Position numbers and translations under genes: made by a program. The notes under the pieces were generated by a model. It was not told where the DNA came from. It saw only the letters and a program-made list of their open reading frames with translations, and did not search any database. A DNA stretch of 64,000 nt from a virus (Duplodnaviria; Heunggongvirae; Uroviricota; Caudoviricetes): IMG/VR virus record IMGVR_UViG_3300045988_150439. One strand, 5' to 3'. This document shows positions 6,554 to 47,030 of the stretch, one piece after another (the stretch's first letter is position 1; each line of letters opens with the position of its first letter).

Positions 6554-6631
6554 TAACAATCACCTTTAAAATAAGTAGATGATTACTTATCTTTCTGTGA
6601 GAATACTTTCATCTGTTAGCTAGGAGTTGGT

Positions 6632-7408: not shown

Positions 7409-7463
7409 TCTCTCCGCGCGTCGTTTTTTACGCAAATAACGATAGGTAAGTACAAGATTATTT

Positions 7464-7946: not shown

Positions 7947-9265
7947 AAAAGTTGATCGCACTTAAGCATAAGCTGGACGAAATGAAAGCTATGGGAACCA
8001 ATGCAAAAAAAGAGGCATTGGCCAACATGGATGACTTCGAGCAAAGCATGGTTTCATTGATGCTCAACCCTTTCATCCGTTTTGGGGTAAAGAAATACAA
8101 AGTGGCAGAGCCGCTTAGTGAGTCCATCCCAAGTGACGAAAAAGCCATTGATGTACTGAATAAGCTGGCCTCTCGCGAGCTAACGGGGAACGCAGCAATA
8201 GCTGCTGTTGAGTCTATCGTGGCGTCAATGTGCGCCGATGGGCAGGACGTGTTCCGTCGTTTCCTCTTAAAAGACCCGAAAGCAGGTGTTGGGATTAGCC
8301 TATGCAACAAGGTTTTTGAAAATCCCATTCCGAAATTCGAGGTGCAGCTGGCGTCACCGTATAAAGAAAAAGGCGACAAATACCCCTTCAAGCCAAATCC
8401 TAAAGCAAAATGGCCGATGATTGGCAGTCTTAAGCTCGATGGTTTGCGAGTAATTTGTGAGGTTATTGTTGACGAGGAAGAGGTGAACTTCCTTTCTCGT
8501 ACTGGTAATCCAATCACGTCTCTCGATCACCTAAAGCCAGCCATGCTCGAATTAGGCAAACTTTCAGGCCACAAACACATCTTCTTCGATGGTGAAGGAA
8601 CAGCCGGTTCATTTAACCAGTCCGTATCTGCATTGCGCAAAAAGAACGTGCAGGCAATTGGCGCTATTTATCATGTTTTCGACTTCTTCCTACCGGAATG
8701 GCGGGCACAGGCTAAATCCAAAGAGTATGCAAAGACAGGTATGAAGCTGAAAGAGCGCCTGGCTATTCTCGTGGCGTTGTTCAAAAACGATCGCAGTGAA
8801 GGCTACGCACAAGACATTCACCTGCATCCGTTCTATATCATCCATAGCCACGAAGATTTCATCGAACGCTTCATGAAACGCCTGGACGATAACGAAGAAG
8901 GGGAGATGGGCAAAGATCCGAACTCTGTTTACGAGTTTAAACGTACCCGCAGCTGGTGGAAGTTAAAAGACGAAGATTCAGAAGATGGTGAAATTATCGA
9001 CTTTGAGCCGGGCGACCCGGACTCTGGTTTTGCCAACACGCTTGGAAAAATTGTTATTCGCCTTGAAAACGGTGTGATTGTTCGTGCGAGCGGCATTAAG
9101 CATAAATATCTGGACGAGATCTGGAACAACAAAGAGAAGTACCGTGGTCGTATTGTCGAGGTTCATTGTCACGAGAAAACGCCGGATGGCAGCTTACGCC
9201 ACCCACGACTGAAATGGCCGCGTTGCTTACGCGATACAGAAGATCGAATCGGAGATAAAGAATGA
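7943..9265 (+). CDS. ATP-dependent DNA ligase
   Basis: Nucleotidyltransferase motif I KxDGxR present as LKLDGLRVI; size (440 aa) and context fit a phage DNA ligase. Confidence 0.65.
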   Translation: MKKLIALKHKLDEMKAMGTNAKKEALANMDDFEQSMVSLMLNPFIRFGVKKYKVAEPLSESIPSDEKAIDVLNKLASRELTGNAAIAAVESIVASMCADGQDVFRRFLLKDPKAGVGISLCNKVFENPIPKFEVQLASPYKEKGDKYPFKPNPKAKWPMIGSLKLDGLRVICEVIVDEEEVNFLSRTGNPITSLDHLKPAMLELGKLSGHKHIFFDGEGTAGSFNQSVSALRKKNVQAIGAIYHVFDFFLPEWRAQAKSKEYAKTGMKLKERLAILVALFKNDRSEGYAQDIHLHPFYIIHSHEDFIERFMKRLDDNEEGEMGKDPNSVYEFKRTRSWWKLKDEDSEDGEIIDFEPGDPDSGFANTLGKIVIRLENGVIVRASGIKHKYLDEIWNNKEKYRGRIVEVHCHEKTPDGSLRHPRLKWPRCLRDTEDRIGDKE

Positions 9266-10076: not shown

Positions 10077-10466
10077 AAACATGGTGATAAGTATTTACTT
10101 ACTTATCTTTTATGTATAAGATGACTTTGTTTTCGTTGAGACGCGACTGTTTGAACTTAAATACAAGTGCAAACGAAGAAGTCTATCTGGCAGTAGCCTA
10201 ATAAGCCAAACACCAGCGAGGTCAGTTTCCAGCCTCGTTACCGAAATGGGACACACTGAGCGAGTGTGATTGCAGAACGCAGGAGGGAACATTCATGTTC
10301 CCTCCGATGAAGTAACAGAATGGGCGGTTGGTATATTTTCAACTCCATATGACTCCCGGATTCTTAGCCACTGACCGCCCATCCTGTTACGTCATTTTGT
10401 TCAATTATGTCGTTTATACTGGGTTAAAAAGCGGCGACGTAGCCCGGCTGGTATGGTTAGCCAGCA

Positions 10467-11592: not shown

Positions 11593-12804
11593 TCAAAAAA
11601 GTTTTATAAATTCATAATTCTGGTCAATTAAGGATTCAATACACACCATGCAAAAATCTACATCGTTAAAATCAGGTGTGTAATATTCATCCTCATAACA
11701 TTCATTTAGACCTTCAATCAATTTTTCTTTAAAAACTCCCCACGTTTCAATATGAACCATTTCCATATAAGGCGCATGTGTATGTACTTGCAATACATCC
11801 CAGGTGTCTATAACCTCGATCCGCGGCTTGCAATTAATTTTTTCTAAATATGCCCTCCCAGAATTGTAAATTTTCGACATTGATGCCCCAAAACCTGATG
11901 GTTGGTAATGAGTGTAAATGTCATAAATTTTTTGTCCTATTCTAGGGAGTTGAGAAGCATTGGATATTTGTGGCGAATGAAAGTATCGCTCTATGGAAGA
12001 AAACGCAGAAACATTAACTAGAGTAATCGTATATGGTGCTAAAGTTCTCTCGTTCAAATTTCTACATAAAATAGCAAACCCATGGCTATTAGTCTTTTCA
12101 CCGTCTGAGGACATTTTTGCCATGCTGGCTTTAATAACATTCAATTTCGAATGTAAACGAGAAGTGGAAGTCGGTTGATTATACATTTCATCATCATACA
12201 AACATATATGAAACCCGCCAAGATGACGAAATGAGAACTTGAGTGCTTCTTCCGCAATAACTAATTTATTAATATCTAAAGGAGTAAGTGATACGTTACC
12301 TTGTAAATCATAGCAAGGTTCTAAACATAGAAAGTTTTTCTTCTGCCACACAATCATATTAAAAATAAAGTGTCTAACCAAAGGTGGCCAGTCAGGTGAT
12401 ATAAGTACATTGGTAATATCTCCATCAGACAAGTATGACAAGTAACTTTTTAGTTCCGCAGCATATGCCACTAGCTCAGTTCCAGCTTCCCTTGTTGGTG
12501 TTGAAAAATTTTTTAACTCAATAAGAACTAAGGATTCATTCTCTGTTGAATAAGCAACGACATCAGGTCTTAATATCTCAGATTTTGTTGCTGAGATATT
12601 TTCATCATCTGTCATTAAATGTAACAATGTTATATTCTTTAAACAAAACTGATAACTCTCCTTAATTTTTTTCTCTTCGGGTCTTTTCGGATTAAATTCA
12701 TTTAATTTATCAATATTGATGATTGAATTATATAATCCATCTTGATCAGATAATTTGTCAATTATCCAATTTTGCATTTCCTTTTCGCTTAAAAATATTG
12801 ACAC
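11593..12804 (-). CDS. PD-(D/E)xK nuclease-like protein, putative (second gene of an AT-rich two-gene module)
   Basis: 403 aa; N-terminal region carries a PD-x14-ExK arrangement (RPDVVAYSTENESLVLIELK); GTG start with GGAG RBS; strongly AT-rich; 26 bp downstream of its partner. Confidence 0.4.
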   Translation of the reverse strand: MSIFLSEKEMQNWIIDKLSDQDGLYNSIINIDKLNEFNPKRPEEKKIKESYQFCLKNITLLHLMTDDENISATKSEILRPDVVAYSTENESLVLIELKNFSTPTREAGTELVAYAAELKSYLSYLSDGDITNVLISPDWPPLVRHFIFNMIVWQKKNFLCLEPCYDLQGNVSLTPLDINKLVIAEEALKFSFRHLGGFHICLYDDEMYNQPTSTSRLHSKLNVIKASMAKMSSDGEKTNSHGFAILCRNLNERTLAPYTITLVNVSAFSSIERYFHSPQISNASQLPRIGQKIYDIYTHYQPSGFGASMSKIYNSGRAYLEKINCKPRIEVIDTWDVLQVHTHAPYMEMVHIETWGVFKEKLIEGLNECYEDEYYTPDFNDVDFCMVCIESLIDQNYEFIKLF

Positions 12805-12830
12805 TAATTAGGCTCCCGTTAAACCAAAAA

Positions 12831-13652
12831 TTAAAAATCTTGCTTTACTTTATCCATAGTCAGAATTTTGCTAATAATTGAAGATTCAAATCCATCTAAA
12901 CCTGAGAGAAAGTTAATTAGCTTTTGGATATGTTGTTCTTTAGGTATAAGTATATATTTTATATCATTGAACTCAAAATCAATGCCAAACTTTGAAAATT
13001 TTGAGCTAATTTTTGCTTTGTCATCAGAAGTGATAACACGCTCCAAACTCAGACTAGGCCATAAATCACCAATAAAAGGAGCTGGCACATAACGCCACTC
13101 TTTCTCGTCTGCATATATATAATTCTCTATTGTTTTATTATCTTTTCGCTCTAGCTTGCCTCTGTAATTTTTCATATAACGCAGTAAATTATATAGATCA
13201 GAATATTCTGCTTTCAATTTCTCAAACTCTATTCTGTTTTTGGTATCTAAATTTCCTCTAGCCTTCCAAAGCGGCACCAACTTTTTTTTAATAAGTCGAA
13301 TTCTGGCATTGTATTTAGAAAATATTTCACTGCTCTTATTCATATATAGAACTGGGTGTAGACCTTTCTTTTCCGCCCAAGACTTAGTTAGCCCAAGACC
13401 GAATTCCCCATATTTTCCGCTATGATCTCTGATTTGTGATAGTTTTATGTCACAAAACGATACCATTGGTACTGCAAACCTCCTGCGTCCCCCGACTCCT
13501 CTTATTTCCTCGCGAGCAAGAAATGGTTTAAAATATTTCTCAGCCAATATGCTATAGAAAGCATCTTCGTTTTTTGTAAAATGAAACAACGTGGTTGGAT
13601 GAAGACTATAAACAGATTCAACATTCGCATCAGGATTTTCAAGGATAGTCAT
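12831..13652 (-). CDS. Abi-like hypothetical protein (first gene of the AT-rich two-gene module)
   Basis: 273 aa from the ATG at 13652 (RBS aaggtg); AT-rich, Lys-rich; gene sizes and order resemble two-gene abortive-infection modules such as AbiGi/AbiGii, but this is an unverified recollection. Confidence 0.35.
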   Translation of the reverse strand: MTILENPDANVESVYSLHPTTLFHFTKNEDAFYSILAEKYFKPFLAREEIRGVGGRRRFAVPMVSFCDIKLSQIRDHSGKYGEFGLGLTKSWAEKKGLHPVLYMNKSSEIFSKYNARIRLIKKKLVPLWKARGNLDTKNRIEFEKLKAEYSDLYNLLRYMKNYRGKLERKDNKTIENYIYADEKEWRYVPAPFIGDLWPSLSLERVITSDDKAKISSKFSKFGIDFEFNDIKYILIPKEQHIQKLINFLSGLDGFESSIISKILTMDKVKQDF

Positions 13653-13801
13653 TTTACACCTTGTGGAAAGCCAGTTTAGTTCTGTAAATAGTATCACACG
13701 ACAGGCGGCTATTCTTCTATCAATAAAGGATAGGTAAGCACTTACTTTTTACGCGCGTTAATTGTATAGTTCTTTCGGATACTCACTTGAAAGGACTCAA
13801 T

Positions 13802-14282: not shown

Positions 14283-14891
14283 ATGCGTTTAGAAAATTGC
14301 CTAGAAGATATGAGTGTCATTAGCAATGCCCTTGCTACTGTGACCTCTAACGCTTCACGCTTTTCAAACGCAAAGCCTACAGCTAAATCTGGGCGTGATT
14401 TTATTGAACCGCGTGGATATCGACGCTTCCGTGGCACGATGAAGCCCTCTGCGAAATTCACAGGATTCAAAACACAAACCTATGTGAGCACTGCGGCTAT
14501 TCCTGTTCAAGAGAACCGCGATGCGGCACAGCTGGCAAAGATTGAAAGCAAGCTCGCAAAATTGACGGCGAAACACGTTCGCTTAGCCCATGCCATCTCT
14601 GGATGGAAAGCGGAAAAGATTCGCAGCAACTTCGGTGAAAGTCGTTACGAAGAACTGAAGAACGTTGACCTGACCATTCGTGGTTTGGAGGGATTCGTTA
14701 ACAAGTTGATTCGCGACTCTGAGCAACCTCATCCATATTTGAAACGCTTGAGCGATTCTGTAACTGAGTATCGTTTAGCTATCTCTGATCTGCTATTGAT
14801 TTTAAATCAGTGTTTTAACGACGTAAACGTCATCGAATCGCAGACTGGCCTCATTGATGAGGACGTCTTCGCCAACTTCTCATTCCATTGA
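14283..14891 (+). CDS. hypothetical protein (possible antitoxin-position partner of the YafO-like gene)
   Basis: 202 aa ORF with aagagg RBS, ending 10 bp before the YafO-like gene; no recognised fold. Confidence 0.4.
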   Translation: MRLENCLEDMSVISNALATVTSNASRFSNAKPTAKSGRDFIEPRGYRRFRGTMKPSAKFTGFKTQTYVSTAAIPVQENRDAAQLAKIESKLAKLTAKHVRLAHAISGWKAEKIRSNFGESRYEELKNVDLTIRGLEGFVNKLIRDSEQPHPYLKRLSDSVTEYRLAISDLLLILNQCFNDVNVIESQTGLIDEDVFANFSFH

Positions 14892-14900
14892 GGTTGAACG

Positions 14901-15311
14901 ATGAAGATCACATGGAACAGTGATAGTTACGCCCAATTTTTAAAGCCGACCTTCGATATAAAGCCTGACTTAGAGATTACGTTACTCAACGATTTCAAGT
15001 CGTTTAAACAAGGCATGTACCCAGCCCTATTCGGCAAAGATGGCCCGTATACGGCTCCTGGTGCTATCGTGTCCTCCCGCGTTTATCACGTTCATCTCTT
15101 GTTCACGAAGCAAGAACGAACCAGCAGCCGCAGCAGATTCAATTGCACAAGCGACCGTGCACTCGTTTACAGTCAACATGCACATTTCCAAGATGTGTAT
15201 AGCCTATTGGCAATCTTCCCTAACAACGCACATCAGTACGCGAAAGATCCAAAAATTATGGTCGATATCGCTGCCTACGCGGCCGCATTTCAAGCTCTCA
15301 CTAACCCTTAA
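14901..15311 (+). CDS. YafO-family toxin-like protein
   Basis: 136 aa; segments FGKDGPY...VYHVHLLF, RALVYSQHAHF and LLAIFPNNAHQYAKD...AAYAAAF parallel E. coli YafO as recalled from memory (not searched). Confidence 0.45.
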   Translation: MKITWNSDSYAQFLKPTFDIKPDLEITLLNDFKSFKQGMYPALFGKDGPYTAPGAIVSSRVYHVHLLFTKQERTSSRSRFNCTSDRALVYSQHAHFQDVYSLLAIFPNNAHQYAKDPKIMVDIAAYAAAFQALTNP

Positions 15312-15484: not shown

Positions 15485-16588
15485 ATGAAAAATAGCTTTG
15501 ACAGAGCACGCGCAGCGGAGAACACCTCAAAAGAGGCGATTGAGTATCTCGAAAGAGCATCTCAAATGCAGGCCGTTATGATCTCGCAGGTTAGCAATGA
15601 CATGAGATTCTCAGACGCATTCATGTTATTCACTCGCTTATCTCTGCTAATAACAAGACGTCGGCCAGAGATCGCTGTTCACTGTATTTTGATACATGTT
15701 TTGCCGCACATTGCTGATGTAAAAGTAAGTGACATTAATAGGTTCATGGTGAACCAACTGGTCAACCCACTAATACTGGATGGCAAAATTGTTATGGGCC
15801 GCCGCGTTTTCTCTCTGATGAAGCAGTTCCTTAGCTGGTGCGCCTTCCAGGGGATGATAGACGTGTCACCGTTAAACGATATGTCACTTAACAAAGTTGC
15901 CGGTGGCGCAAAGCCCACACCTCGCGAGCGGAAGCTGACCGACGCAGAGGTATGGGTGTTCTGGAATATATGGGACTACTTCAATGTGTGTGCTGGTACA
16001 AAATGGGCGGCAAGGCTATGTCTTGTATCCGCAAGACGACCTGATGAAGTACTGCGGGCTAAAAAAAGTGAGTTCAATCTTAAGCGTGGGGTTTGGAATC
16101 AAGGCAAAAGAAACAAGTCAGCACGTGAGCATTCGCTGCCTTTAAGCACATTAATGCGCACATGCATTGAAGAGTTGTTCGAATACGGTAAAGATAGCCA
16201 GTGGCTCGTTCCTTCGAATAAAAAAATCGGGAAAGACCTTCCTATGTCTAAAGTGGCAATAGCCCAGGCATTACGTCGTATTCTGGAACGACCAGAACTG
16301 ATGGAGCTTGAGCCATTTACACCCCGAGATTTGCGCCGTACTGCGCGTAGTTACTTCCCAGCATTAGGCATAAGCCAGGAGGTATCACGTAAAATCATGA
16401 ACCACAGTCTTGAGGGGATAGATCGGGTCTACGACCGGCACGATTATATGGACGAGATGCGAGACGCCTTAGAAAGTTTCTCGACGTACATCGCATCAAT
16501 CGTAGAGCAACCGGATTTAGACGAAATTGACCACAAATTTAAGGGAGATCGTCTATCAACAGAGCTTATTCGTGTAAATTTTTCATAG
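15485..16588 (+). CDS. int: tyrosine recombinase / phage-type integrase
   Basis: C-terminal catalytic region with ARLCLVSARRPDEV (Arg box), TPRDLRRTARSY and NHSLEGIDRVYDRHDY (His/Tyr box); true start may be internal to the listed ORF. Confidence 0.65.
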   Translation: MKNSFDRARAAENTSKEAIEYLERASQMQAVMISQVSNDMRFSDAFMLFTRLSLLITRRRPEIAVHCILIHVLPHIADVKVSDINRFMVNQLVNPLILDGKIVMGRRVFSLMKQFLSWCAFQGMIDVSPLNDMSLNKVAGGAKPTPRERKLTDAEVWVFWNIWDYFNVCAGTKWAARLCLVSARRPDEVLRAKKSEFNLKRGVWNQGKRNKSAREHSLPLSTLMRTCIEELFEYGKDSQWLVPSNKKIGKDLPMSKVAIAQALRRILERPELMELEPFTPRDLRRTARSYFPALGISQEVSRKIMNHSLEGIDRVYDRHDYMDEMRDALESFSTYIASIVEQPDLDEIDHKFKGDRLSTELIRVNFS

Positions 16589-16969
16589 AGACTTTATGGC
16601 CTCAACAACCTTTTGTGATGCGCCTTTCTCTTTACCGAATCGCTCGTTATATGCAGCAAGAACCTGTTTTTCGTCCTCGTTAAGAGGAGCAGTGCCTTCT
16701 TTGTATAAAAATGCTGCGAGTTCGGGTTGACGTTCTTCCAGCACCATCATCATAAGACGACTTGGCTCAATACCCAGTGCCAGCGCCAGCGGACGAACCT
16801 TATCGATAGGCAAAGGAATTTTGCCGCTTTTAATTAAAGAAAGGTTGTTGGCGTTTTTATACCCAATTGTTTTGGCTATCTGGGCCTGGCTCATAGGTGA
16901 GGATTCAATCAACCCTGCGATAAAAGCAGCGTAGCGACTTTCTATAAATTCAATCTTGTTATCAGACAT
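16583..16969 (-). CDS. XRE-family helix-turn-helix transcriptional regulator (repressor-like)
   Basis: HTH segment MSQAQIAKTIGYKNANNLSLIKSGK; same orientation as the recombinase gene's opposite strand, with a 250-bp AT-rich control region upstream of it. Confidence 0.6.
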   Translation of the reverse strand: MSDNKIEFIESRYAAFIAGLIESSPMSQAQIAKTIGYKNANNLSLIKSGKIPLPIDKVRPLALALGIEPSRLMMMVLEERQPELAAFLYKEGTAPLNEDEKQVLAAYNERFGKEKGASQKVVEAIKSL

Positions 16970-17220
16970 GGTTACAACCTTTGCGCGTTCAATTCTCTCT
17001 GGTAAGTGCTTACCGATATTACATCAAAGGTTAGGGTTGTAAAGCTATTATCATTTTTTTCGATAGGCACTTAAAATACCGGTTAAAGGCCATTGCACGG
17101 AGAAAAATTAGCCCAAAATAGGTAAGAAAATCAACTTTCATATGATATGAATGTATTCAGTATTGATACAAATTTTAGTAGTATTCCTTACCATAGTATA
17201 AGTTAGAATGGATTGATTGA

Positions 17221-17433
17221 ATGAAAACCACTATTTCCAGCCTAATCGCTCTTGAGATGGGACACGTACAGAAATTAGCTGATGAGTGTGTAGCTGACAT
17301 CCTCACCGATCTGCCGAATGAGCAGATTCAGGTTGGTGTGAATGACACAACTGGCTTTATATTCGAACTTAACAACAAACGCTTCACGCTTCTCAATACC
17401 GGCTCCTGGTCTTTAGCCGTCAGAATCTGTTAA
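17221..17433 (+). CDS. hypothetical small protein
   Basis: 70 aa ORF followed by hairpin ctgcgcgaa...ttcgcgcag at 17446-17478. Confidence 0.3.
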   Translation: MKTTISSLIALEMGHVQKLADECVADILTDLPNEQIQVGVNDTTGFIFELNNKRFTLLNTGSWSLAVRIC

Positions 17434-17531: not shown

Positions 17532-19640
17532 ATGTCTAAAAAACGTTCCATCAAAGAGGTTCAGGACTTCCGTGACAGTGTAAAACGAGTAGTCGCTCTC
17601 CTTTCAGGCAAAAACATCCCTGTTGCAGAACGAGGGGACGACGCTTATGTACGCTATAACGATGATGGAGAGCCAATTCTCGTAAACATCCCATCAATCC
17701 CGGATAACGCAACACCGGCATTGATGAATGCTGTGCGCGGATTTCTCGATCATGAGGTTGCTCACATTTTGTTTACCGATATTCGTGTGTCCAACAAAAT
17801 GAGAGAAAAAGGACGCGTTCCTTCCTGGTCGCTATGGAATGCCTTAGAAGACGTGTTCATCGAGCGAAAAATGGGTCAGGTCTTTAACGGAACAAGACGT
17901 AATCTGATGGCAACTCAGCGCCTTATAATCGAAAAAGTCTTTAAACCAAAGGCTTCAGAGGCTATTGCTTATTGTGGCAAAGATCAGCGCGCGCTTTTTC
18001 TAAACTTCTTTCTCTGTCCGGTTGTAAGAGCCTGGGATGGCCAAGCACCGTTCGTAGATTTCATGGATGAATATTGGCCTGTCATTGAGAAACCAATTTC
18101 ATTATTAAAAGAACATGGTATCGATGTGGCCATGCGTAACATGTCTTGCACCGAGGATTGTGTAAAGGTGGCTGCGACCATAGCTAAGATCCTCAAAGAC
18201 ACTGAAAGTGAAAGCAAAGGTAAGGAGTCAGCTCCGGGAAAAACTTCCGATCCTTCAGACGCTGACCAGACGGATGCCTCTGGAGAAAATAATGAAGATA
18301 ACGAAGATCATGAGACACCCTCAGCGTTAGATAATCACAAATCTATCAAATCAGAATCACACAGTAAGCACAAACATGATAATAACGACAGTGATGATTC
18401 AGATAATTCTGAATCATCAGAAACAATATTCAATGATACAGAAAATGATAAAGAGGTATCAGATTCTGATGCTTCTGATAACGCGGCGTCAGAATCATTA
18501 ACCGCTGACCACGAAAAAAGAAAAACGACAGAAGACGGCTCTTCAGATATTCCAACTCCGTCAAAAATGAGTCTGGAAGAGGCTTTAGAGGTGCTGGATA
18601 GCATAGAAGATGAAGTCGGAGGCATGACAGAAGATGCTCTATCCGAAACGATTAAAAGCGAGTTAACAGAAAGCTCGAAAAGCGAATACAGGCCATACAA
18701 TCGCTCATACGACTTCATCGGCTCGATTGATCAGGCAGAAGCCCATATCAAACGGCTTATTAAAACATTCTCCGATATTGATTTAGGTGGATATCCAATC
18801 AGCCGTTATCGCATCGTTCCTGAAGGCAACCAACTCTTCGACAAATATATTGAAAAGCACCTTTCGTCAGGTGTTTCGTCGACGCTGGCAAAAGACCTGG
18901 AACGTGCAATAGCAAGCAGAAACAGAGTTCAGTTTATACCTGGCCAGCGTCGGGGGCGCATTCATGGTTCAAGTATCTACAGATTAACAATGAATGATGA
19001 TCGCGTGTTTCGTAAAAAAGAAGAATCTAAAGCCGTTAACGCCTGTGTTCAACAAGTGATTGATTTATCGGGTTCAATGAGTGGCGAAACGATAAAACTA
19101 GCTCTTGCAAGTGCATATACCATCGCCGATGCACTTGATCGAATAAATGTTCCCAACATTATCACCGGCTTCACTACATTTGGCAATCATATGGCAGCAG
19201 GAGAACTTAAGGCTATCAAATATGAGTTCTCTCGCTTTGAATCTTTAATGCTACCTATCATCAAAAATTGGAATGAAAAAGCAAATTCTCGCGAAGTTCG
19301 CTCACGTATGGGGTGCGTAGGCTACACATTCCCACTTCTTAATAACGTGGATGGTGAAAGCATAGCCAGCCTTGCATCGTTATTTTCCGGTCGCTTGGAG
19401 GACAGGAAGATCATGCTTGTTCTGAGCGATGGCGAGCCGTGGGCTGTTGGGAGAGGTTTTGACGCTCATTTGCGTTCGGTTGCGAAGCAAATTGAAACGC
19501 AGACTGACATTGATTTGATGGCAATTGGCATCATGACTGACGCACCGGAGAGATTTTACTCAAATCATGCCCTGGTAACGAGCGTTGATAGTCTTGGTTC
19601 ATCTGTAGTTACTGAACTATCTCGTATCATTTTGAAGTAA
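17532..19640 (+). CDS. von Willebrand factor A domain protein (CobT-like), with acidic low-complexity linker
   Basis: 702 aa; MIDAS motif DLSGSMSG in the C-terminal vWA domain; long D/E/S-rich middle region; paired with the downstream AAA ATPase. Confidence 0.55.
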   Translation: MSKKRSIKEVQDFRDSVKRVVALLSGKNIPVAERGDDAYVRYNDDGEPILVNIPSIPDNATPALMNAVRGFLDHEVAHILFTDIRVSNKMREKGRVPSWSLWNALEDVFIERKMGQVFNGTRRNLMATQRLIIEKVFKPKASEAIAYCGKDQRALFLNFFLCPVVRAWDGQAPFVDFMDEYWPVIEKPISLLKEHGIDVAMRNMSCTEDCVKVAATIAKILKDTESESKGKESAPGKTSDPSDADQTDASGENNEDNEDHETPSALDNHKSIKSESHSKHKHDNNDSDDSDNSESSETIFNDTENDKEVSDSDASDNAASESLTADHEKRKTTEDGSSDIPTPSKMSLEEALEVLDSIEDEVGGMTEDALSETIKSELTESSKSEYRPYNRSYDFIGSIDQAEAHIKRLIKTFSDIDLGGYPISRYRIVPEGNQLFDKYIEKHLSSGVSSTLAKDLERAIASRNRVQFIPGQRRGRIHGSSIYRLTMNDDRVFRKKEESKAVNACVQQVIDLSGSMSGETIKLALASAYTIADALDRINVPNIITGFTTFGNHMAAGELKAIKYEFSRFESLMLPIIKNWNEKANSREVRSRMGCVGYTFPLLNNVDGESIASLASLFSGRLEDRKIMLVLSDGEPWAVGRGFDAHLRSVAKQIETQTDIDLMAIGIMTDAPERFYSNHALVTSVDSLGSSVVTELSRIILK

Positions 19641-19735
19641 TTAAAACAGCCTTAAAGATAAGTAACTACTTACCATAGTTAATGGTATATTTATATAAGA
19701 ACTTGAACGCTCATTAGAGAACAAAGGAAAAGCGC

Positions 19736-20971
19736 ATGACTACTACTGCACTGCAAAATGAAAAAAATCATTCTGATTACCTTGTTTGCAAGTGGTGCGG
19801 CAAATCATTTCACTATTTTAAGTCCCATGTAGCCAATGGTAATTGCGAGGGCATTCCTGAGTCAGTAAAAGATGCCGATCCTGACACCGTACTGAAAATG
19901 TACACAACGCAGTTTCCAGATGAACCAACGCTATCGAAAAAGGCACTTGATGCAATTCAAGCTAAACGTGCCGAGCAAAAAAGCGAAATGGCGAAATCTT
20001 CTGGCTTGACCAGTAGCCCAGGCTACACAGGCACAGTTGAGTACAAGACAGATCTGGTCGCAGCTCACGAACTGCTAAACGTAACGGTGGAAGAACTCGG
20101 AACAAAACGTGGGACGCCGCTCATGGTTAGCGTCAACGTCAATACGCCGTATCCAGAGTTCGTTCCAGAAGTGAAGAAGGGCTACGTATATGGCGACTTC
20201 GAACTGATCAAAGATATTTTCATGATGCTTGAACTTGGCATACCTGGCTATTTGTGGGGTCATGCAGGAACAGGCAAATCGTCATTGCCTACACAGCTAT
20301 GTGCTTTGCTCAATCGTCCGTTGATCCGTGCCCAACATACAGCATCAATGGAAGAGGCACATGTTACGGGGCAAATTCTGGCGCGTGATGGCTCTACGTA
20401 TTTCGAACCTGGCTTGCTTGCGCTCGCAATGAAGCATGGCTGGGTTTACCTCGCGGATGAATACGACTTTGCGTTTCCACAAATTCTTGGCGTGTATCAG
20501 CCAGTGCTGGAAGGTGAGGCGTTGGTCATCAAAGAGGCAACTCCAGAATGGCGTCGCATTACTCCGCATGAACGGTTTGCTTTCATTGGCACTGGCAACA
20601 CAAACGGTTCTGGTGATGAAACCGGCTTGTACCAGGGTACAAACATCCAGAACGCCGCGAACTTTTCGCGTTTTGGCATCGTTTCGAATGTGAAATACAT
20701 GAGCAAAGACGCAGAGATCAACATGTTGATAAATGCCGGTATCGTGGATGAATACGCTGAAAAGATGGTTAAGTTTGCCGGTATCGTTCGCGATGGATAC
20801 GAAGAACACCTTATCAGTCAGCCAATTGGCCCTCGTGAACTTTTGTTGTCGGCCAAGATTGGAATGATGCGAGGCGACTTTGTGACAGGTATTGAGCGTT
20901 CTTTCATTAACAAACTCCCTTCAGCTTCTGCACAAGCGGCTCGTGAAGTTGTTCAAAAAATATTTGGTTAA
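19736..20971 (+). CDS. AAA-type ATPase (CobS/MoxR-like)
   Basis: Walker A GHAGTGKSSL and Walker B-like VYLADEYD; 411 aa; immediately follows the vWA protein. Confidence 0.6.
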   Translation: MTTTALQNEKNHSDYLVCKWCGKSFHYFKSHVANGNCEGIPESVKDADPDTVLKMYTTQFPDEPTLSKKALDAIQAKRAEQKSEMAKSSGLTSSPGYTGTVEYKTDLVAAHELLNVTVEELGTKRGTPLMVSVNVNTPYPEFVPEVKKGYVYGDFELIKDIFMMLELGIPGYLWGHAGTGKSSLPTQLCALLNRPLIRAQHTASMEEAHVTGQILARDGSTYFEPGLLALAMKHGWVYLADEYDFAFPQILGVYQPVLEGEALVIKEATPEWRRITPHERFAFIGTGNTNGSGDETGLYQGTNIQNAANFSRFGIVSNVKYMSKDAEINMLINAGIVDEYAEKMVKFAGIVRDGYEEHLISQPIGPRELLLSAKIGMMRGDFVTGIERSFINKLPSASAQAAREVVQKIFG

Positions 20972-21151
20972 TCGTGCGTAAAGGATGTTTCGGCTCTCTT
21001 ATCGCTGCTTCTGAAACTGGCAAGGCTTGTCTGGGGTGTCCAGACAAGCCCGATTGTCACCAATCAGCAAAAGAAGTTGCGATTTCGATGTATGGGAAGT
21101 TCGTAGGCTTCCCCAATGACAAAATCAAAAAAACCAGAAAGGTAAAAACAC

Positions 21152-24100
21152 ATGAAGGCACTGATGGTTCGAACTGACTTCTCACTTGGGGAGTCGGCTC
21201 TAAAAGCAGAAAACGCGGTGAAGATTGCCAGAGAAGCTGGCTACACCGCTGTAATTTCAGCAGATAGCATGAATATTGCAAGTGTTATTCCACTACAACG
21301 TGCCGCTGGTGACGACATGGCGGTTATTTGTGGTGTGAAACTAAACATTGTTGATGATCCCACATACGAGCACCGGGCTAAACTTGCTAAAGAATCTATG
21401 AGATGTATGGAATCATTAGAGCGGGGACGCAACTACTCGTTTACCGCTCTAATTAAAAATGAGCAAGGATATCGCGACATCTGCGAACTAATGACGGCGG
21501 CCAACACACGAGAACAGTTCTACTTTGTACCGCGTCTCTCGCTCGAACAGTTGGTTTCTACATATGCCAAAGGCAACATCATCCTGCTTACTTCCGACAT
21601 CGGTAGCGTGTTCCAACGCAACGATTTTGCAAAAATCATAAGCACACTGATTACAGCGGGTGGAAAAGACAACTTCTATAGTGTGGTTTATCCGCACCCT
21701 ACCCCATTCTACGACCAGATTAACGTCCGGGCGATGAAAGTCGCCAGCGCACTGAAAATAGAGCCAGTAGCGTTTTATCCCGCTTATTACGAATCGATCG
21801 ACGATGCAGACATTAAAGACATTGCGCACATGGTTACGAACAACATCAAAATCGACCAGCCGCATCGTCTGCGTATCCCCCACCAGCGAGATAACGCCAT
21901 CAATGGTCGTCGCCATCTCCTTGAGGCGCTTAAAGCCTTCTCCGTTCGCATGGATGTGCCGGTAACAGCTGCAATGGCCTCAACAACGCAGGACTCCATT
22001 ATCGATGCCTGCACATGGCGCTGGCATGAATTGCCACCAGCACTGCCCAAGATGGCAGACGACGAACCTGCAACGCTGATGAAACTGGCTGTTGAAGGGC
22101 TGCGTAAACGTCTTACCACAAAAGAGTTTGGATACACACCACCTGCTTCTGAGAACAGGGTTTATGTTGAGCGGCTAAAGTACGAAATGGACACGCTGAC
22201 TCGCCTGGGATTCTGTGGTTACTTCCTGATGGTACGCGATCTGATGAATCATAGTCGTGAAACTGGCATTCCCGTTGGGCCTGGTCGTGGTTCCTCTGCC
22301 GGTTCTCTGGTGGCGTGGTGCATAGGCATAACCAACGTCGACCCAATCCGTCACGGTCTTCTGTTTGAGCGTTTCATCAACCCTGAGCGTCTCGACTTGC
22401 CGGATGCGGACTTGGACTTCAGCCAGGCACGTCGCCATGAGGTGATCGAGTATCTGAATGAACGCTACGGCGAAGATTACGTTGCAGGCATTCCGAACTT
22501 CACCTATCTGGGCGCGGCATCTGCGCTGCGTGACACTGCACGTATTTACGGTGTCGATGCTGCGGATATGGCGGTATCCAAAGAGTTCAAGAATATGGAG
22601 GACGACAGCCTGTCTCTGGAAGAGCTGCGCGAGCAACTGGCCAGCCTGGACAAATACGCCACGAAAAACCCGGAAGCGTTCAAAGCGGCGTGTAAGCTGC
22701 AAAGCCTGATGCGTGGTTTTGGTCGTCACGCTGCGGGGATGATCGTCGCTGGCGTTCCATTAGTAGAGCGCACGCCCGTCGAGCTGCGTGGCAATGCTCG
22801 ATGTATTGCGTTCGATAAACGTTACTGCGAGGCGATGGGGCTGATTAAGTTGGACGTTCTCGGTCTGGCAACACTCGATCTTCTGGATAGCGCGAAACGC
22901 TACATCAAAGAGAGCACCGGTGAAGACATCAATCTCGACGCTATCCCACTGGACGATCGCAAGGTTCTGGATGGGTTCGCTGCAGGGTACACGCAGGGCG
23001 TATTCCAGCTGGAGTCCGGCCCCATGCGTAAGCTGCTTAAAGATCTGGGCGGTGGCATCGAGCCAATGAGTTTCAAAACCGTTGTCGCAACTACCGCCCT
23101 CTTCCGACCGGGACCGATTCAATCCGGCATGTTGGATGACTATGTTTCCGTTGCGAAAGGATTTATGACGCCTACATCACTACATCCTGTCTTGGATGAA
23201 CTGACCTCTGAAACAAATGGAGTGATTCTCTATCAGGAACAAACGATGAACGCAACAAGGCTTCTTGCTGGTTTCACAATGGCTGAGGCGGATGGTGTGC
23301 GTTCAGCAATCGGTAAGAAGAACATGGAAAAGATGAGGAGCATGGGTGAGAAATTTGTCATTCAGGCTCAAGCTGGGTGGATCGACGTAGAGCTTGAAAA
23401 TGGCGCAATACAACGGATTCATCGCGCAGAACATTTTAAATGCGAGGACGGTACTCTGAGGACAGTTGAAGAGGCGTTGGAGCATGGAGTGAAGCTGCCA
23501 ATGCCAGTTGTGCGCGTTACAACGTCACATCCGGGTCTGTCTGAGACGAAGGCAAAAGAGATATGGACTGCATTTGAGAAAAACGGAGCCTATCAGTTCA
23601 ATAAATCACACTCCGTTGCTTATTCTTTAATCAGTTATCAGTCTATGTGGCTAAAGACGCACTACCCTGCTGAGTTCTTCGCAGCTGCGCTCACCATTCT
23701 GGGCGAGGATAAGCATCAGGGGCTGGTGAAGGATGCGCTGACCTATGGCATTCGCGTATTGCCACCAGACGTTAATGTGTCATCTAACCGAATTGAGATC
23801 CGCACACTCGAAGACGGCAGTCAGGCACTGTATGCGCCATTCTCTGCTGTGAAAGGCTGTTCTGAAAATGGTTGTCAGGCAATTATGCGTGCGCGTGAGA
23901 AAGTTGGTGGCAAATTCGAGTCAGTGGCACAATTCGATGAAGCGGTCGAGAAGCGTGCATGTAACAGTCGTGTACGCGAGTCGCTTCATAAAGTAGGGGC
24001 TTTTGCGTCAATTGAGCCAGGCAGTCTGCCAGCAACTGATCCTGAACGACTGCGCGACCAGGCTGAGCTGATGGGCAATCTCATCATTGACGCTGTTAAA

Positions 24101-24670
24101 GCATCACGTCCGTTCGAAATGAATCCTAAGCGTTCTGCCGAAATCAACGTACTCATGACACGTATGGCGGTTGAAATGGGCTTGGGTGAGGAGTTGATAC
24201 GCCCGACTATTGGTATTAAACCCAAAATCATGATCATTCTGGACAATGCGAACGGCAATGACGCTCGTACCGGCTACTTCATGGAGAACGGATACGACGA
24301 CTTTAAGGCAAAACTACTGACAGTTGGAGATCTGCGCATGGGCGATCTTTATGTCACGGGTGTTTGTAAGAAGGTTAAGGACAAAGAGAAAGACTATACC
24401 AAAGACGAGATAGGCCAGTTCACAGACTTTATGCGGGAAGAAATTAATCTTGTACGACCAACCTACATTTTGACGTGTGGTAGTCGTTCAACCGCACTAT
24501 TTAACAATAAGAGTAAACCATCAGATCTGATTGGTCGTAAGGAGTACTTCCCAGAGCTTGATGCAACCGTCTTCTACGGATTTAACCCGAATATCCTGTA
24601 CTTCCGACCGGAAGAAGGAGAGCGACTGGAGGCCATTCTGGCTGATATCGCGGAGACAATAAATAAGTAA
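21152..24670 (+). CDS. dnaE: DNA polymerase III alpha subunit (DnaE-like replicative polymerase)
   Basis: 1172 aa; conserved Pol III alpha core segments (GCSENGCQAI..., FNKSHSVAYSLISYQSMWLKTHYPAEFFAA); the N-terminal PHP-like region lacks the usual His cluster. Confidence 0.7.
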   Translation: MKALMVRTDFSLGESALKAENAVKIAREAGYTAVISADSMNIASVIPLQRAAGDDMAVICGVKLNIVDDPTYEHRAKLAKESMRCMESLERGRNYSFTALIKNEQGYRDICELMTAANTREQFYFVPRLSLEQLVSTYAKGNIILLTSDIGSVFQRNDFAKIISTLITAGGKDNFYSVVYPHPTPFYDQINVRAMKVASALKIEPVAFYPAYYESIDDADIKDIAHMVTNNIKIDQPHRLRIPHQRDNAINGRRHLLEALKAFSVRMDVPVTAAMASTTQDSIIDACTWRWHELPPALPKMADDEPATLMKLAVEGLRKRLTTKEFGYTPPASENRVYVERLKYEMDTLTRLGFCGYFLMVRDLMNHSRETGIPVGPGRGSSAGSLVAWCIGITNVDPIRHGLLFERFINPERLDLPDADLDFSQARRHEVIEYLNERYGEDYVAGIPNFTYLGAASALRDTARIYGVDAADMAVSKEFKNMEDDSLSLEELREQLASLDKYATKNPEAFKAACKLQSLMRGFGRHAAGMIVAGVPLVERTPVELRGNARCIAFDKRYCEAMGLIKLDVLGLATLDLLDSAKRYIKESTGEDINLDAIPLDDRKVLDGFAAGYTQGVFQLESGPMRKLLKDLGGGIEPMSFKTVVATTALFRPGPIQSGMLDDYVSVAKGFMTPTSLHPVLDELTSETNGVILYQEQTMNATRLLAGFTMAEADGVRSAIGKKNMEKMRSMGEKFVIQAQAGWIDVELENGAIQRIHRAEHFKCEDGTLRTVEEALEHGVKLPMPVVRVTTSHPGLSETKAKEIWTAFEKNGAYQFNKSHSVAYSLISYQSMWLKTHYPAEFFAAALTILGEDKHQGLVKDALTYGIRVLPPDVNVSSNRIEIRTLEDGSQALYAPFSAVKGCSENGCQAIMRAREKVGGKFESVAQFDEAVEKRACNSRVRESLHKVGAFASIEPGSLPATDPERLRDQAELMGNLIIDAVKASRPFEMNPKRSAEINVLMTRMAVEMGLGEELIRPTIGIKPKIMIILDNANGNDARTGYFMENGYDDFKAKLLTVGDLRMGDLYVTGVCKKVKDKEKDYTKDEIGQFTDFMREEINLVRPTYILTCGSRSTALFNNKSKPSDLIGRKEYFPELDATVFYGFNPNILYFRPEEGERLEAILADIAETINK

Positions 24671-29472: not shown

Positions 29473-31812
29473 ATGGCAAAAGGAAAATCCGCACTGGCAC
29501 TTGCTCTGAAAAAGAAAATCGGTAGCAACGACGAAATTCAGAAAGTAACTCATTGGATTGACACAGGCTTTCCTCCGTTAAACAAAGCTATTTCCGGTCG
29601 TTACGATGGCGGTTTCCCATGTGGTCGTATCGTAGAAGTATTCGGGCCACCAAGCGCGGGGAAATGTGTTACCGCAGACACCATGCTGCTGACGGAGCGT
29701 GGAATGGTAACAGTGAAAGAGTTGTTTGAGATTGAAGGGTACAAAGCGACATGCACTACTCGCGATGTAGAGCATAACGTTGGACTCATCAATGAAAATG
29801 GCGTGATAGAGAAGACCTCACACCTGACATGGAACAACCGTCGCAAATTCAAGCGTATTAAGCTGGCATCAGGCGGTTATATCGAGGCTACGTTCCGTCA
29901 CCCAATCCGTGTGGTTGACGACTTAGGTAATGTCGTCTGGCGACATGCTGAAAAAATCAGTGTAGGCGACACGATTCCTTCAATGGTTGGCACACATCAA
30001 TTCGGCGATCAGCACCTGGATGCCAATATCGCAAAACTGATGGGCTATTTAATTGCTGACGGATACGTGGCCTCTGAAAATTCAGTGAATTTTTCTAACA
30101 CAGATCCTTTCATCAAGGATGAGTACTACCGCCTCATTTCGCTGGTATCAGACAAGATGCCAGTTACGAGAAAACATAACGGCTCGGAAGACCATGTGCT
30201 GTTTAGCAAAGAGGTGCGTTCGCTGCTTTTTAAAGAATATGGTCTGGAGTATGAGAAAGCTGCTGGCAAGCAGGTTCCGTTGAGTGTGCGTCGCGCCAAT
30301 AGCGAGGCTCAAATTGCATTCCTTCGCGGCTACTTTGAGCTGGAATGCCACGTCAATGATGGTCGCTGCATTGAGGTTGTGAGCGCGAGTGGGCTGCTGC
30401 TACAGCAAATTCGCCTCATGCTCCTGAATCTGGGGATTACGTCAACTATCTCTGAAAAACACGTCGCGGGTTATGAAAATACATATTACCGGCTGTCATT
30501 CAGTGGCTCTAATTACGACCTTTTTCTGTCAACGATTGGTTTCGAATCTCCGGCACGTTTATCAGTGGCAACCAAACGGGACATTGGTTTTGACCGCACT
30601 TACTCAGGCTATGTTCCGCACATCAGCGGCTTAGTGAAATCACTCTACGAGTCGCTCACCAAGACCACCCGTGAAGACTACGCTCTGGTAGACCACGTTA
30701 TTGGCCGCGGCGATCGTGTCGGAATAGACAAACTGCGAGAAATCTATGTCTCCTTCATTGGCAGAAAGAATCGTTTTAACGAGCATCTGTTTGCACAACT
30801 GGCAGCGGTAATTGGCTCTAACTTGTTCTACGACGAAGTCGTGGCTATTGAGGAAGGTGAAGCACCAACGTTCGACGTAGCGATGCCGGAAACACACTCT
30901 TTCTGGTCTAACGGGATTATCAGCCACAACACATTCCTTGCAACAGCAGCGATGATCTCCGCACAGAAACAAGATGGTCTGGCGGTATTCCTCGATCATG
31001 AGAACAGTTTTGACGTTGGCCTGGCTGTAGCCAATGGCCTGAACGCAGATGAGGATGACGGTCAGTGGGTATACAAGCAGCCAGATACCTTCGAAGACTC
31101 TGTAGAGTTGATCGGCACAATACTTAAATTGGTTCGTGATGAAGAGCTTATCCCCGAATCAGCACCTATCTGTATCGTGGCTGACTCTCTTGCGTCTATG
31201 GTTCCGAACTCCAAAGCCGAGAAGTTCGAAAAGATGGCTGAAGGCACTGCCAAAGACAAAGATCAGCTAAACATGAACGACAATACGGCACTGGCTCGTG
31301 CGACGAGTGCGAACTTCCCTACTCTGGCTTTGTGGGCACGCAAATACAACGCCTGCATCATCTTCTTGAATCAGGTTCGCACAAAAATCGGTGTAATGTT
31401 TGGCGACCCTACTACGTCGCCAGGTGGAGATTCACCGAAGTTCTACGCTTCTGTACGTATCCGTCTTGGTGCATCGGTGATGAAGGATGGTAAAGAGAAG
31501 ATCGGCCAGGACGTAGGCGCAGAATGCATCAAAAACAAAGTTGCACCACCGTATGGCAAATGCACCTGGAAATTCTACTTCGATCCTACTCGTGGCCTCG
31601 ACGTTATCGAATCGCTCGTCGAGTACATGCTGGAAGAAGGATACCTGCCAAAGAACGCCAGCGGGCGAGTTGAAATTGGTGACAAGAAATACACCAAATC
31701 GCAGATCGTCGAGATGTATCGGGAGAAGCCATTAGCAGAAATCATTGCTGCGTTACAGACGATAGATGACCGACGAGAGAAGACATCACCAACAGAAGAA
31801 CTAGAAGATTAA
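29473..31812 (+). CDS. recA: RecA-family recombinase interrupted by an intein
   Basis: N-extein ends GRIVEVFGPPSAGK; C-extein begins TFLATAAMISAQKQ and carries ICIVADSLASM, IIFLNQVRTKIGVMFGDPTTSPGG and KFYASVRIRL, all RecA signatures. Confidence 0.8.
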   Translation: MAKGKSALALALKKKIGSNDEIQKVTHWIDTGFPPLNKAISGRYDGGFPCGRIVEVFGPPSAGKCVTADTMLLTERGMVTVKELFEIEGYKATCTTRDVEHNVGLINENGVIEKTSHLTWNNRRKFKRIKLASGGYIEATFRHPIRVVDDLGNVVWRHAEKISVGDTIPSMVGTHQFGDQHLDANIAKLMGYLIADGYVASENSVNFSNTDPFIKDEYYRLISLVSDKMPVTRKHNGSEDHVLFSKEVRSLLFKEYGLEYEKAAGKQVPLSVRRANSEAQIAFLRGYFELECHVNDGRCIEVVSASGLLLQQIRLMLLNLGITSTISEKHVAGYENTYYRLSFSGSNYDLFLSTIGFESPARLSVATKRDIGFDRTYSGYVPHISGLVKSLYESLTKTTREDYALVDHVIGRGDRVGIDKLREIYVSFIGRKNRFNEHLFAQLAAVIGSNLFYDEVVAIEEGEAPTFDVAMPETHSFWSNGIISHNTFLATAAMISAQKQDGLAVFLDHENSFDVGLAVANGLNADEDDGQWVYKQPDTFEDSVELIGTILKLVRDEELIPESAPICIVADSLASMVPNSKAEKFEKMAEGTAKDKDQLNMNDNTALARATSANFPTLALWARKYNACIIFLNQVRTKIGVMFGDPTTSPGGDSPKFYASVRIRLGASVMKDGKEKIGQDVGAECIKNKVAPPYGKCTWKFYFDPTRGLDVIESLVEYMLEEGYLPKNASGRVEIGDKKYTKSQIVEMYREKPLAEIIAALQTIDDRREKTSPTEELED
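29665..30930 (+). mobile_element. intein with LAGLIDADG homing-endonuclease domain, inserted in the RecA P-loop
   Basis: Begins with Cys (CVTADTMLL), ends SHN followed by Thr; two LAGLIDADG-type motifs (LMGYLIADGYV and FLRGYFELECHV); removing the 422 codons restores GPPSAGKT. Confidence 0.75.
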
Positions 31813-46954: not shown

Positions 46955-47030
46955 TCTGTCTGGTCTTGTTCTCTCAATGAATGTAAACTCACATGATGAA
47001 TAAGTAATTACTTATCTTTGTGAGGTTTTT

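Follow-up and report, generated by a model that had tools for sequence, protein, structure and literature searches.

Why should a phage-plasmid carry, at the head of its replication genes, two proteins that resemble subunits of the cobaltochelatase of cobalamin (vitamin B12) synthesis? The locus lies in a 64,000-nucleotide stretch of viral DNA (IMG/VR record IMGVR_UViG_3300045988_150439, Caudoviricetes), which as a whole we call the window. A first-pass annotation had picked out a protein of 702 amino acids (aa) with a von Willebrand factor A (vWA) domain, carrying a MIDAS (metal-ion-dependent adhesion site), and a long spacer rich in Asp, Glu and Ser, followed by an AAA_5-type ATPase, and had described the two as a CobT/CobS-like pair of unknown role. 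Here we argue that the pair may be a CobST-type AAA+ motor with a vWA/MIDAS adaptor that remodels or cleaves a protein client, rather than a device for cobalt chelation. This is the reading to which we lean, with modest confidence, by analogy with solved relatives.

The 8-kb region containing the pair and the gene for a DnaE-type polymerase is 96.6% identical to Escherichia phage Cyrano, 81.7% identical to Salmonella phage SSU5 and 98.6% identical to the E. coli plasmid CP057127. Used as a query, it matched 783 plasmids in PLSDB, mostly non-mobilizable, from Klebsiella, Escherichia, Enterobacter, Yersinia, Salmonella and Citrobacter. These matches mark the window as an SSU5-like phage-plasmid of E. 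coli. The first-pass coordinates of both genes proved exact: each open reading frame (ORF) begins with ATG, each is preceded by an AAGGA Shine-Dalgarno element (ribosome-binding sequence AACAAAGGA), and 95 nt separate them. The 702-aa protein matches Pfam CobT (aa 9-294, 3e-27) and CobT_C, the CobT vWA domain (aa 492-701), and its spacer is indeed 30% Asp plus Glu and 27% Ser plus Thr, while the 411-aa product downstream matches AAA_5 (aa 173-293, 2.1e-15). In PHROG, the vWA protein belongs to phrog_1576 (7e-299), labelled 'unknown function', and the ATPase to phrog_249 (3e-106), labelled 'porphyrin biosynthesis'; the similarity of the vWA protein to phrog_459, a 'peptidase' family of T4-like phages, is weak (4.8e-8 over aa 72-128).

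Genes of this kind are already catalogued: a database cluster with 3,307 members, which goes under the name 'cobalamin biosynthesis protein CobT' or 'cobaltochelatase CobT-related protein', shows 98% identity to the vWA protein. In the Cyrano record (L001, OV696614; 12533-15972) the two genes go by 'dimethylbenzimidazole phosphoribosyltransferase' and 'cobalamin synthetase', a clash of names with enterobacterial enzymes that are also called CobT and CobS but are unrelated (PMC8749415). The pair of Vibrio phage ICP2 has been known since 2011 (PMC3037004), and that of SSU5 is also known. As the first-pass annotation had stated, such pairs occur in diverse phages: we found the two genes adjacent in SSU5-like, Rhizobium, Pseudomonas, Vibrio ICP2, roseophage and Gordonia phages. 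Published papers likewise call their function uncertain (PMC11288001, PMC11705849), and we found no experimental test of phage cobST function in the literature searched.

The closest solved structures to both proteins are CobS and CobT of Brucella, which bears out the proposed CobT/CobS-like identity. In the Brucella structures, six CobS subunits assemble into a ring. CobT has an M48-like N-domain joined by a disordered linker to a vWA domain, and a pre-vWA 'shaft' of CobT enters the ring on nucleotide binding; CobN is located between the two CobT domains, beside the MIDAS (bioRxiv 10.64898/2026.07.21.739949). Residues 142-411 of the phage ATPase align with residues 39-315 of Brucella CobS (9ujv; E 4.7e-26). 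Walker A (G175-S182), Walker B (D241-E242), sensor-1 (N288), the Arg finger (R312) and sensor-2 (R367) fall on CobS residues G71-S78, D141-E142, N186, R210 and R271, respectively. All of these residues are invariant in 59 relatives (41-80% identity), and by its motifs the 411-aa protein should be a catalytically complete AAA+ ATPase. The vWA protein matches Brucella CobT (21vt and 9uka) at 2.4e-15, or 2.7e-63 when the family profile is used. Its pre-vWA segment aligns to CobT residues 346-420, spanning the shaft (Q373-R413), with K454, E457, R458, G471, G475, D489, R491 and F493 at least 87% conserved, and the MIDAS residues (D511-x-S513-x-S515, N605/D607 and D633) are invariant in relatives. 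In addition, the phage protein has D73 and N124 at the positions of Brucella D80 and N130, two residues in contact with the small subdomain of CobS (bioRxiv 10.64898/2026.07.21.739949). Because the ATPase, MIDAS, shaft and CobS-contact residues all correspond to those of Brucella, the two phage proteins can soundly be expected to form a CobST-like complex.

Does such a complex make cobalamin? Viral cobST have been proposed to be auxiliary metabolic genes (AMGs) for cobalamin supply (Liu et al. 2021, PMC8651126). On that published idea, the phage CobS and CobT would join a host CobN to give an active cobaltochelatase and more cobalamin during infection. The proteins are genuine CobS and CobT homologues with shaft, MIDAS, ATPase motifs and the two CobS-contact residues in place, and the proposal may be right for hosts with CobN and without CobST. 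For the element studied here, however, we give it very little credence. Against the NCBIfam equivalog models, the vWA protein scores 70.6 bits (TIGR01651 CobT, cut-off 759.05 bits), with only aa 442-697 aligning, and the ATPase scores 87 bits (TIGR01650 CobS, cut-off 558.55 bits), so that both fall 6-10-fold short. The window contains no CobN-like gene, its sole ORF above 1000 aa being DnaE, and neither CobN nor any other cob/cbi gene is found in the complete 109.6-kb closest plasmid, CP057127. The same plasmid encodes a class Ia ribonucleotide reductase (RNR), nrdAB. Class Ia enzymes are B12-independent, and the usual argument that phage cobST feed a B12-dependent RNR is therefore inapplicable. 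The hosts of the related plasmids, Klebsiella, Escherichia and other enteric relatives of E. coli, are established either to make no corrin ring or to make it by an anaerobic route independent of CobN. Finally, both proteins carry conserved features that serve no purpose in chelation and that cellular CobT and CobS do not have, namely an HExxH...E motif and a finger of DNA-binding type, described below. Because the equivalog cut-offs are missed and the closest complete element has no CobN, the pair here is, as far as sequence can tell, not a bona fide cobaltochelatase. The first-pass annotation had named a host chelatase with intact cobalamin-pathway neighbours as the finding that would speak against its proposal, and the cut-offs and the closest complete element gave no sign of one.

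The first of these features is a predicted protease site in the N-domain of the vWA protein, where HEVAH (aa 74-78) is followed by NALEDVFIE (aa 103-111). Among 147 full-length representative relatives at 30-58% identity, HExxH is present in all but three (144/147), and D73, E75, E106 and E111 are invariant. The motif also occurs in far more distant versions, from Vibrio phage ICP2, roseophage CRP-810 and Gordonia phage Anamika. In contrast, it is found in none of 120 cellular CobT N-domains (52-100% identical to Brucella), in which the site reads [SA][MIL]AL[RK] and the downstream VEQARVE is kept; Brucella CobT itself has GLGDSMALR. A fold model of the N-domain (predicted local distance difference test score, pLDDT, 93) has as its nearest solved folds the M48/M56 zinc proteases Ste24 and BlaR1, and a Foldseek search of the N-domain against the PDB gave no significant match. 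Thus, the predicted catalytic site appears to be strongly but not universally retained in the viral family. A MoxR-vWA pair with an N-terminal metallopeptidase has been described in T4-like jumbo phages (Iyer et al. 2021, PMC7824862), and cyanophage cobT is often annotated as a peptidase (Liu et al. 2021, PMC8651126); the Brucella structural preprint mentions none of HExxH, zinc or phages (bioRxiv 10.64898/2026.07.21.739949).

The second feature is on the ATPase, which has about 100 more N-terminal residues than the 328-aa CobS. Within this extension, C18, C21, H26 and H31 are invariant in 59 relatives, the pattern C-x2-C-x4-H-x4-H recurs in 116 of 120, and the family as a whole follows I-x-C-x2-C-G...H-x4-H-L...H...Y...P. 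Pfam ROS_MUCR (PF05443) is matched by 19 of the 59 relatives (best E 1.3e-6), and the family profile weakly resembles the solved Ros structure 2jsp (E 0.14). An AlphaFold (AF2) model of the ATPase (pLDDT 88.4) places a beta-beta-alpha unit at residues 16-33 with pLDDT above 90. Ros/MucR zinc fingers bind AT-rich DNA (PMC9779718). The ICP2 ATPase lacks the finger, and we found no description of a zinc-finger/AAA+ ATPase fusion in the literature searched.

Between the N-domain and the vWA domain runs the acidic linker, which the first-pass annotation had considered unusually long. Measured between conserved positions 222 and 386, its 163 aa stand at the 26th percentile of the 147 representative relatives (median 189 aa, interquartile range 160-226, maximum 340), and near relatives of the vWA protein are mostly longer overall (743-774 aa). 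The linker of Brucella CobT is disordered and has about 90 aa (bioRxiv 10.64898/2026.07.21.739949). The acidic linker thus looks like a family trait, of ordinary length within the family and long only by comparison with Brucella CobT. It diverges quickly, with 38-42% identity where the flanking domains are about 75% identical. The vWA protein as a whole is 56-62% identical, as against 78-81% for the ATPase and 87-93% for DnaE. We rejected arms-race evolution as an account of this difference, since the folded parts are about 75% identical (ATPase about 80%) and only the linker diverges fast.

How might such a machine work? Judged by the homologous CobSTN structures of Brucella, a ring of six ATPase subunits would form, the shaft of the vWA protein would enter its pore on nucleotide binding, and the N-domain would dock on the small subdomain of the ATPase. 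A putative client protein would take the place of CobN, between the MIDAS face and the N-domain. ATP turnover would remodel this client and, in most lineages, the zinc site would cleave it. The machine would be made at the onset of lytic replication, and its zinc finger may place it on AT-rich DNA, for which reason we most expect its client to be a protein of host or phage that is associated with DNA and encountered early in lytic replication.

A bolder form of this proposal, which we judge unlikely as a whole, is a DNA-tethered AAA+/zinc-metalloprotease machine with the logic of SPRTN/Wss1 working with Cdc48/p97. The Ros/MucR-type finger would put the CobS-like ring on AT-rich DNA, and the vWA/MIDAS domain would capture a protein bound to DNA, for example a nucleoid silencer, a roadblock or a part of the host replisome. 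The ring would then extract the captured protein and the M48-like domain would cut it, leaving the template free for the DnaE replisome of the phage. It would follow that cellular CobT is a catalytically dead derivative of an older protease-adaptor family.

The surroundings of the pair bear on all of these possibilities. As first noted, it sits between a regulator and a polymerase, namely a divergent helix-turn-helix (HTH) repressor and DnaE, and it heads a repressor-controlled operon that also encodes DnaE, a single-stranded DNA-binding protein (SSB), an exonuclease and RecA. All relatives examined have the two genes side by side, in one order or the other, within the early/replication part of the genome. 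The distant contexts come from contigs that encode protein relatives, a locus search of viral contigs having returned mostly near-identical SSU5-like loci. At about 30% identity of the vWA protein (L081, L083, L091 and L092) and in Pseudomonas phage nickie, the order is still a divergent minus-strand gene, a 56-74-aa ORF, the cobT-like and cobS-like genes, a Cys-rich ORF, DnaE, a gp32-type SSB, a 5'-3' exonuclease and RecA; nickie is exceptional in having a DNA ligase upstream of the pair and no divergent gene. A homologue of the HTH repressor holds the same divergent position down to about 30% CobT identity (L081, L083 and L084). In ICP2, the pair precedes primase, helicase and PolA.

This arrangement is relevant to a role in virion assembly, in which a MoxR-vWA-metallopeptidase system would serve as chaperone and protease, folding and processing structural proteins. 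Such a role was proposed for T4-like jumbo phages by analogy with the MoxR-vWA system of ATV tail assembly (Iyer et al. 2021, PMC7824862), where the same domain logic is described and so interpreted, and the combination of N-domain and vWA domain is widespread in tailed viruses. We nevertheless hold this to be quite unlikely here. The pair keeps company with DnaE, SSB, exonuclease and RecA in the early/replication module, the capsid and tail genes are tens of kilobases away (structural genes lie 20-45 kb from the pair in the closest plasmid), and a finger of DNA-binding type on the ATPase is not expected for capsid maturation. The context thus seems to favour an early, DNA-linked role over virion assembly.

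An early role could also be directed at the host. The vWA/MIDAS domain might capture a host defence or nucleoid protein, which the AAA+ ring and peptidase would inactivate early in the lytic cycle. We give this version a small but real chance. It overlaps with the reading we prefer and differs from it only in the nature of the client. The pair would be the first expressed after derepression, its protease motif is intact, and its carriers, which infect unrelated hosts, include virulent (ICP2) as well as temperate phages. Set against this are the slow divergence of its folded domains described above, which gives no sign of an arms race, and the lack of any match to a PADLOC or anti-defence family. 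In PADLOC, the vWA protein hit only DrmE (2e-4), mostly through its low-complexity linker and pre-vWA segment (aa 340-533), and the ATPase and the small ORFs hit nothing. Moreover, the pair occurs with hosts from Proteobacteria to Actinobacteria and haloarchaea, which argues for a conserved rather than a host-specific client.

The adjacent repressor raises another possibility, that the peptidase cleaves it and so locks the phage into lytic growth. There are precedents for repressor cleavage in the action of BlaR1 on BlaI and of ImmA on ImmR; BlaR1 is among the nearest solved folds of the N-domain, and a homologous divergent HTH repressor lies upstream in the SSU5-like elements as well as in L081, L083 and L084. 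Yet a commitment switch of this kind strikes us as highly improbable, because, in the variants checked, the lysogeny module was not lost along with HExxH, which lends it no support. L092 keeps an integrase and minus-strand upstream genes and has DQQVAR at the motif site, the virulent ICP2 keeps HExxH without a lysogeny module, and the Gordonia and CRP-810 pairs are not beside a repressor.

The pair could also act as a metal-insertion chaperone for a phage enzyme, with HExxH...E holding the metal for, e.g., the PHP domain of DnaE or NrdB. Related AAA+/vWA systems of this type are NorQ/NorD, which act in delivery of iron into nitric oxide reductase, and CbbQ/CbbO, which activate rubisco. The ATPase-family profile matches CbbQ (7e-20) and NorQ (4e-15) as well as Midasin, a CbbQ_C domain is found in 51 of 59 relatives (it is not significant in the window's own ATPase), the vWA domain weakly matches NorD, and metal-dependent enzymes are encoded nearby. 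We consider this improbable, however. Nothing links the pair specifically to any one metalloenzyme, and HExxH...E on an M48-like fold is a protease signature and not a known metal-transfer site. The polymerases, too, differ among pair-bearing phages, being DnaE, PolA (ICP2) or family B (T4-like; PMC7824862).

Several observations weigh against a client-remodelling protease. First, at least four phage lineages have independently dropped HExxH, namely nickie (L086, locus 6974-9058), P0186, P0209 and P0232, whose site sequences are DSEISK (nickie), DKEVAN, DHQVAL and DQQVAR. These lineages keep the pair, the MIDAS and the DnaE context, and proteolysis is therefore not indispensable to the core function. 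Second, the window's own zinc finger has an insertion and falls below significance for Pfam ROS_MUCR, so that its assignment rests on relatives. Third, inheritance within one large phage lineage, and not functional coupling, may be what keeps the pair next to DnaE; elsewhere the pair is found in phages with PolA or family B polymerases. Fourth, the absence of CobN from the E. coli chromosome is deduced from the well-established lack of de novo corrin synthesis in this species. Lastly, the client remains putative and the activities are predicted.

Features of the cobT-cobS locus and of the rest of the window. Positions are those of the window; residue numbers refer to the encoded protein.
Feature	Position	Strand	Details
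Low-GC island	11593-13697	-	35% GC at 12-14 kb
Unannotated partner of AbiGi-like protein	11593-12804		403 aa
AbiGi-like abortive-infection protein	12831-13697	-	PADLOC AbiGi 6.5e-47
YafO region	14283-15311		202-aa ORF (phrog_13546) preceding the toxin
YafO-family toxin	14901-15311		Pfam 7.9e-22
Tyrosine integrase	15485-16588		Upstream of the pair
HTH (Xre/cI-like) repressor	16583-16969	-	Divergent; Pfam HTH_19; phrog_8 'transcriptional regulator'
70-aa ORF	17221-17433	+	Operon head; phrog_2627 (2.9e-39), label 'function unknown'
cobT-like ORF (vWA protein)	17532-19640	+	702 aa
CobT-like N-domain	17532-18197	+	aa 1-222; M48-like gluzincin fold predicted; HExxH H74, E75, H78 (nt 17751-17765), with E106, D107, E111
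Acidic Ser-rich linker	18198-18686	+	aa 223-385; 163 aa; predicted disordered
Pre-vWA segment with counterpart of CobT shaft	18687-19031	+	aa 386-500; by alignment to Brucella CobT
vWA domain with complete MIDAS, and stop codon	19032-19640	+	CobT_C 1.9e-81
cobT-cobS spacer	19641-19735	+	Palindrome TAAGTA-AC-TACTTA (19659-19672), motif CTTACCATAGT, A/T-rich TATAAG box
cobS-like ORF (ATPase)	19736-20971	+	411 aa
C2H2 zinc finger of ATPase, Ros/MucR-like	19781-19846	+	C18, C21, H26, H31
CobS-type AAA+ module	20156-20971	+	aa 141-411; Brucella CobS match
67-aa Cys-rich ORF	20974-21177	+	GTG start 3 nt past cobS stop; overlaps dnaE start
DnaE-type DNA polymerase III alpha	21152-24670	+	PHP, pol3 alpha, finger and HHH; Pfam DNA_pol3_alpha 1.8e-73
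RecA with intein	29473-31812		779 aa; Intein_splicing 2e-11, LAGLIDADG_3 2.4e-17
Rep3-type repA	35040-36095	-	Two CTTACCATAGT copies just downstream
ApbC/Mrp-type iron-sulfur cluster carrier ATPase	62124-63224	-	Pfam ParA/NUBPL 1.2e-101

Two small ORFs accompany the pair. An ORF of 56-74 aa stands at the position of the 70-aa ORF in every relative examined, with sequence similarity lost outside the SSU5 group. The 67-aa Cys-rich ORF is 77-97% identical in SSU5-like relatives, and its GCFG...C..C.....C motif corresponds to the N-terminus of proteins of 170-216 aa at the same position in L081, nickie, L091 and L092. Because only the N-terminal part of these counterparts is matched, the ORF looks truncated in the SSU5 group; it is possibly a third component of the machine or a polymerase accessory. 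Pfam searches of both small ORFs and of the isolated ATPase N-terminus gave nothing significant, and the 67-aa ORF also had no match in NCBIfam or PADLOC. Between ATPase and DnaE, three distant relatives have a gene resembling sigma-70 region 2 (L005, 5898-6503; L091, 13362-14090; L092, 13246-13911), and the window has none there.

The spacer between the two genes contains repeated elements. Four copies of the palindrome TAAGTA-N(0-10)-TACTTA are present in the window, where 0.04 would be expected (6572-6589, 10088-10105, 19659-19672 and 47001-47014), each in an intergenic position just upstream of a plus-strand gene. Three of the four copies extend to GATAAGTA...TACTTATCTTT, and relatives keep the core in their own cobT-cobS spacer. 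The palindrome might serve as operator, promoter element or terminator. A second motif, CTTACCATAGT, occurs four times with at most one mismatch (0.66 expected): upstream of the 70-aa ORF (17187-17197), upstream of cobS (19669-19679) and, on the minus strand, twice just downstream of repA (34692-34702 and 34732-34742), where the two copies, as 40-nt-spaced repeats, look like iterons. An RNA hairpin or terminator in the cobT-cobS spacer was considered and found unsupported (z = -0.63 against shuffles, with a weak consensus structure and almost no covariation); terminator-like hairpins are seen in this spacer in distant relatives, e.g., L081. A scan of 16.5-25.5 kb for sigma-70 promoters and terminators returned fewer sites than shuffled sequences, and none at relevant places.

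Elsewhere in the window, the low-GC island with the AbiGi-like gene and its partner is probably an AbiG-type defence cassette carried as cargo. Cyrano has different genes between glutaredoxin and integrase, where the window has the YafO region. The RecA gene is interrupted by an intein with a LAGLIDADG homing endonuclease, and the RecA of the distant relative L081 also has an intein. Finally, the ApbC/Mrp gene lies beside a full-length metG in the closest plasmid, an arrangement that points to capture of a stretch of host chromosome.

Phage cobS and cobT are core genes of several abundant phage groups and are routinely counted as B12 AMGs in virome studies. If the reading that we favour, a motor and adaptor acting on a protein client, is true, many of these annotations would be wrong, a widespread phage function would become testable by point mutants, and the CobT adaptor of the B12 pathway could be understood as a former peptidase whose active site was lost. 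SSU5-like phage-plasmids are spread in clinical Enterobacteriaceae, which gives a conserved early function practical interest. The presence of HExxH in 144/147 viral and 0/120 cellular N-domains, together with the Ros/MucR-type finger, makes an old question testable.

Among characterised systems, CobNST of Brucella melitensis (9uka etc.) is the closest solved relative of both proteins and is likewise encoded by adjacent genes. The two systems share the three-part build of CobT (M48-like N-domain, acidic disordered linker, shaft with vWA/MIDAS) and the AAA+ catalytic residues of CobS. In contrast to CobNST, the phage element is without CobN and both of its proteins fall below the equivalog cut-offs, the vWA protein keeps the HExxH that all 120 cellular N-domains lack and has a linker about 1.8 times as long as that of Brucella, the ATPase has its N-terminal extension with a Ros/MucR-like finger, and the genes lie in an early/replication operon, not in a cobalamin context. 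MoxR AAA+/vWA pairs (CbbQ-CbbO, NorQ-NorD and RavA-ViaA) also place an AAA_5/CbbQ_C-type ATPase beside a vWA/MIDAS gene, but the phage sequences are nearer to CobS and CobT than to CbbQ, NorQ, NorD or RavA. The MoxR-vWA pair of T4-like jumbo phages (PMC7824862) shares an N-terminal metallopeptidase on the vWA protein and differs in its weak phrog_459 similarity and in context, which is replication here and not virion assembly. The pair does not conform to Mg-chelatase (ChlI/ChlD): no Mg_chelatase Pfam match is found here, and ChlD has an N-terminal AAA+-like module where the phage protein has a peptidase-like helical fold. M48/M56 gluzincins (Ste24/ZMPSTE24 and BlaR1) have the same HExxH and downstream conserved Glu, protease activity being predicted here, but the phage protein is soluble, without a membrane domain, and is tethered to a vWA domain and an AAA+ partner. 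The N-terminal ligand pattern of the ATPase family resembles that of Ros/MucR proteins, with 19 of 59 relatives matching ROS_MUCR and a beta-beta-alpha unit predicted in the ATPase; Ros/MucR proteins are free-standing regulators, whereas here the finger is fused to an AAA+ protein and DNA binding is putative. The phage pair is thus a variant of the characterised CobST and MoxR-vWA systems, distinguished by the absence of CobN, a retained protease site, a zinc-finger fusion and a place in a replication operon.

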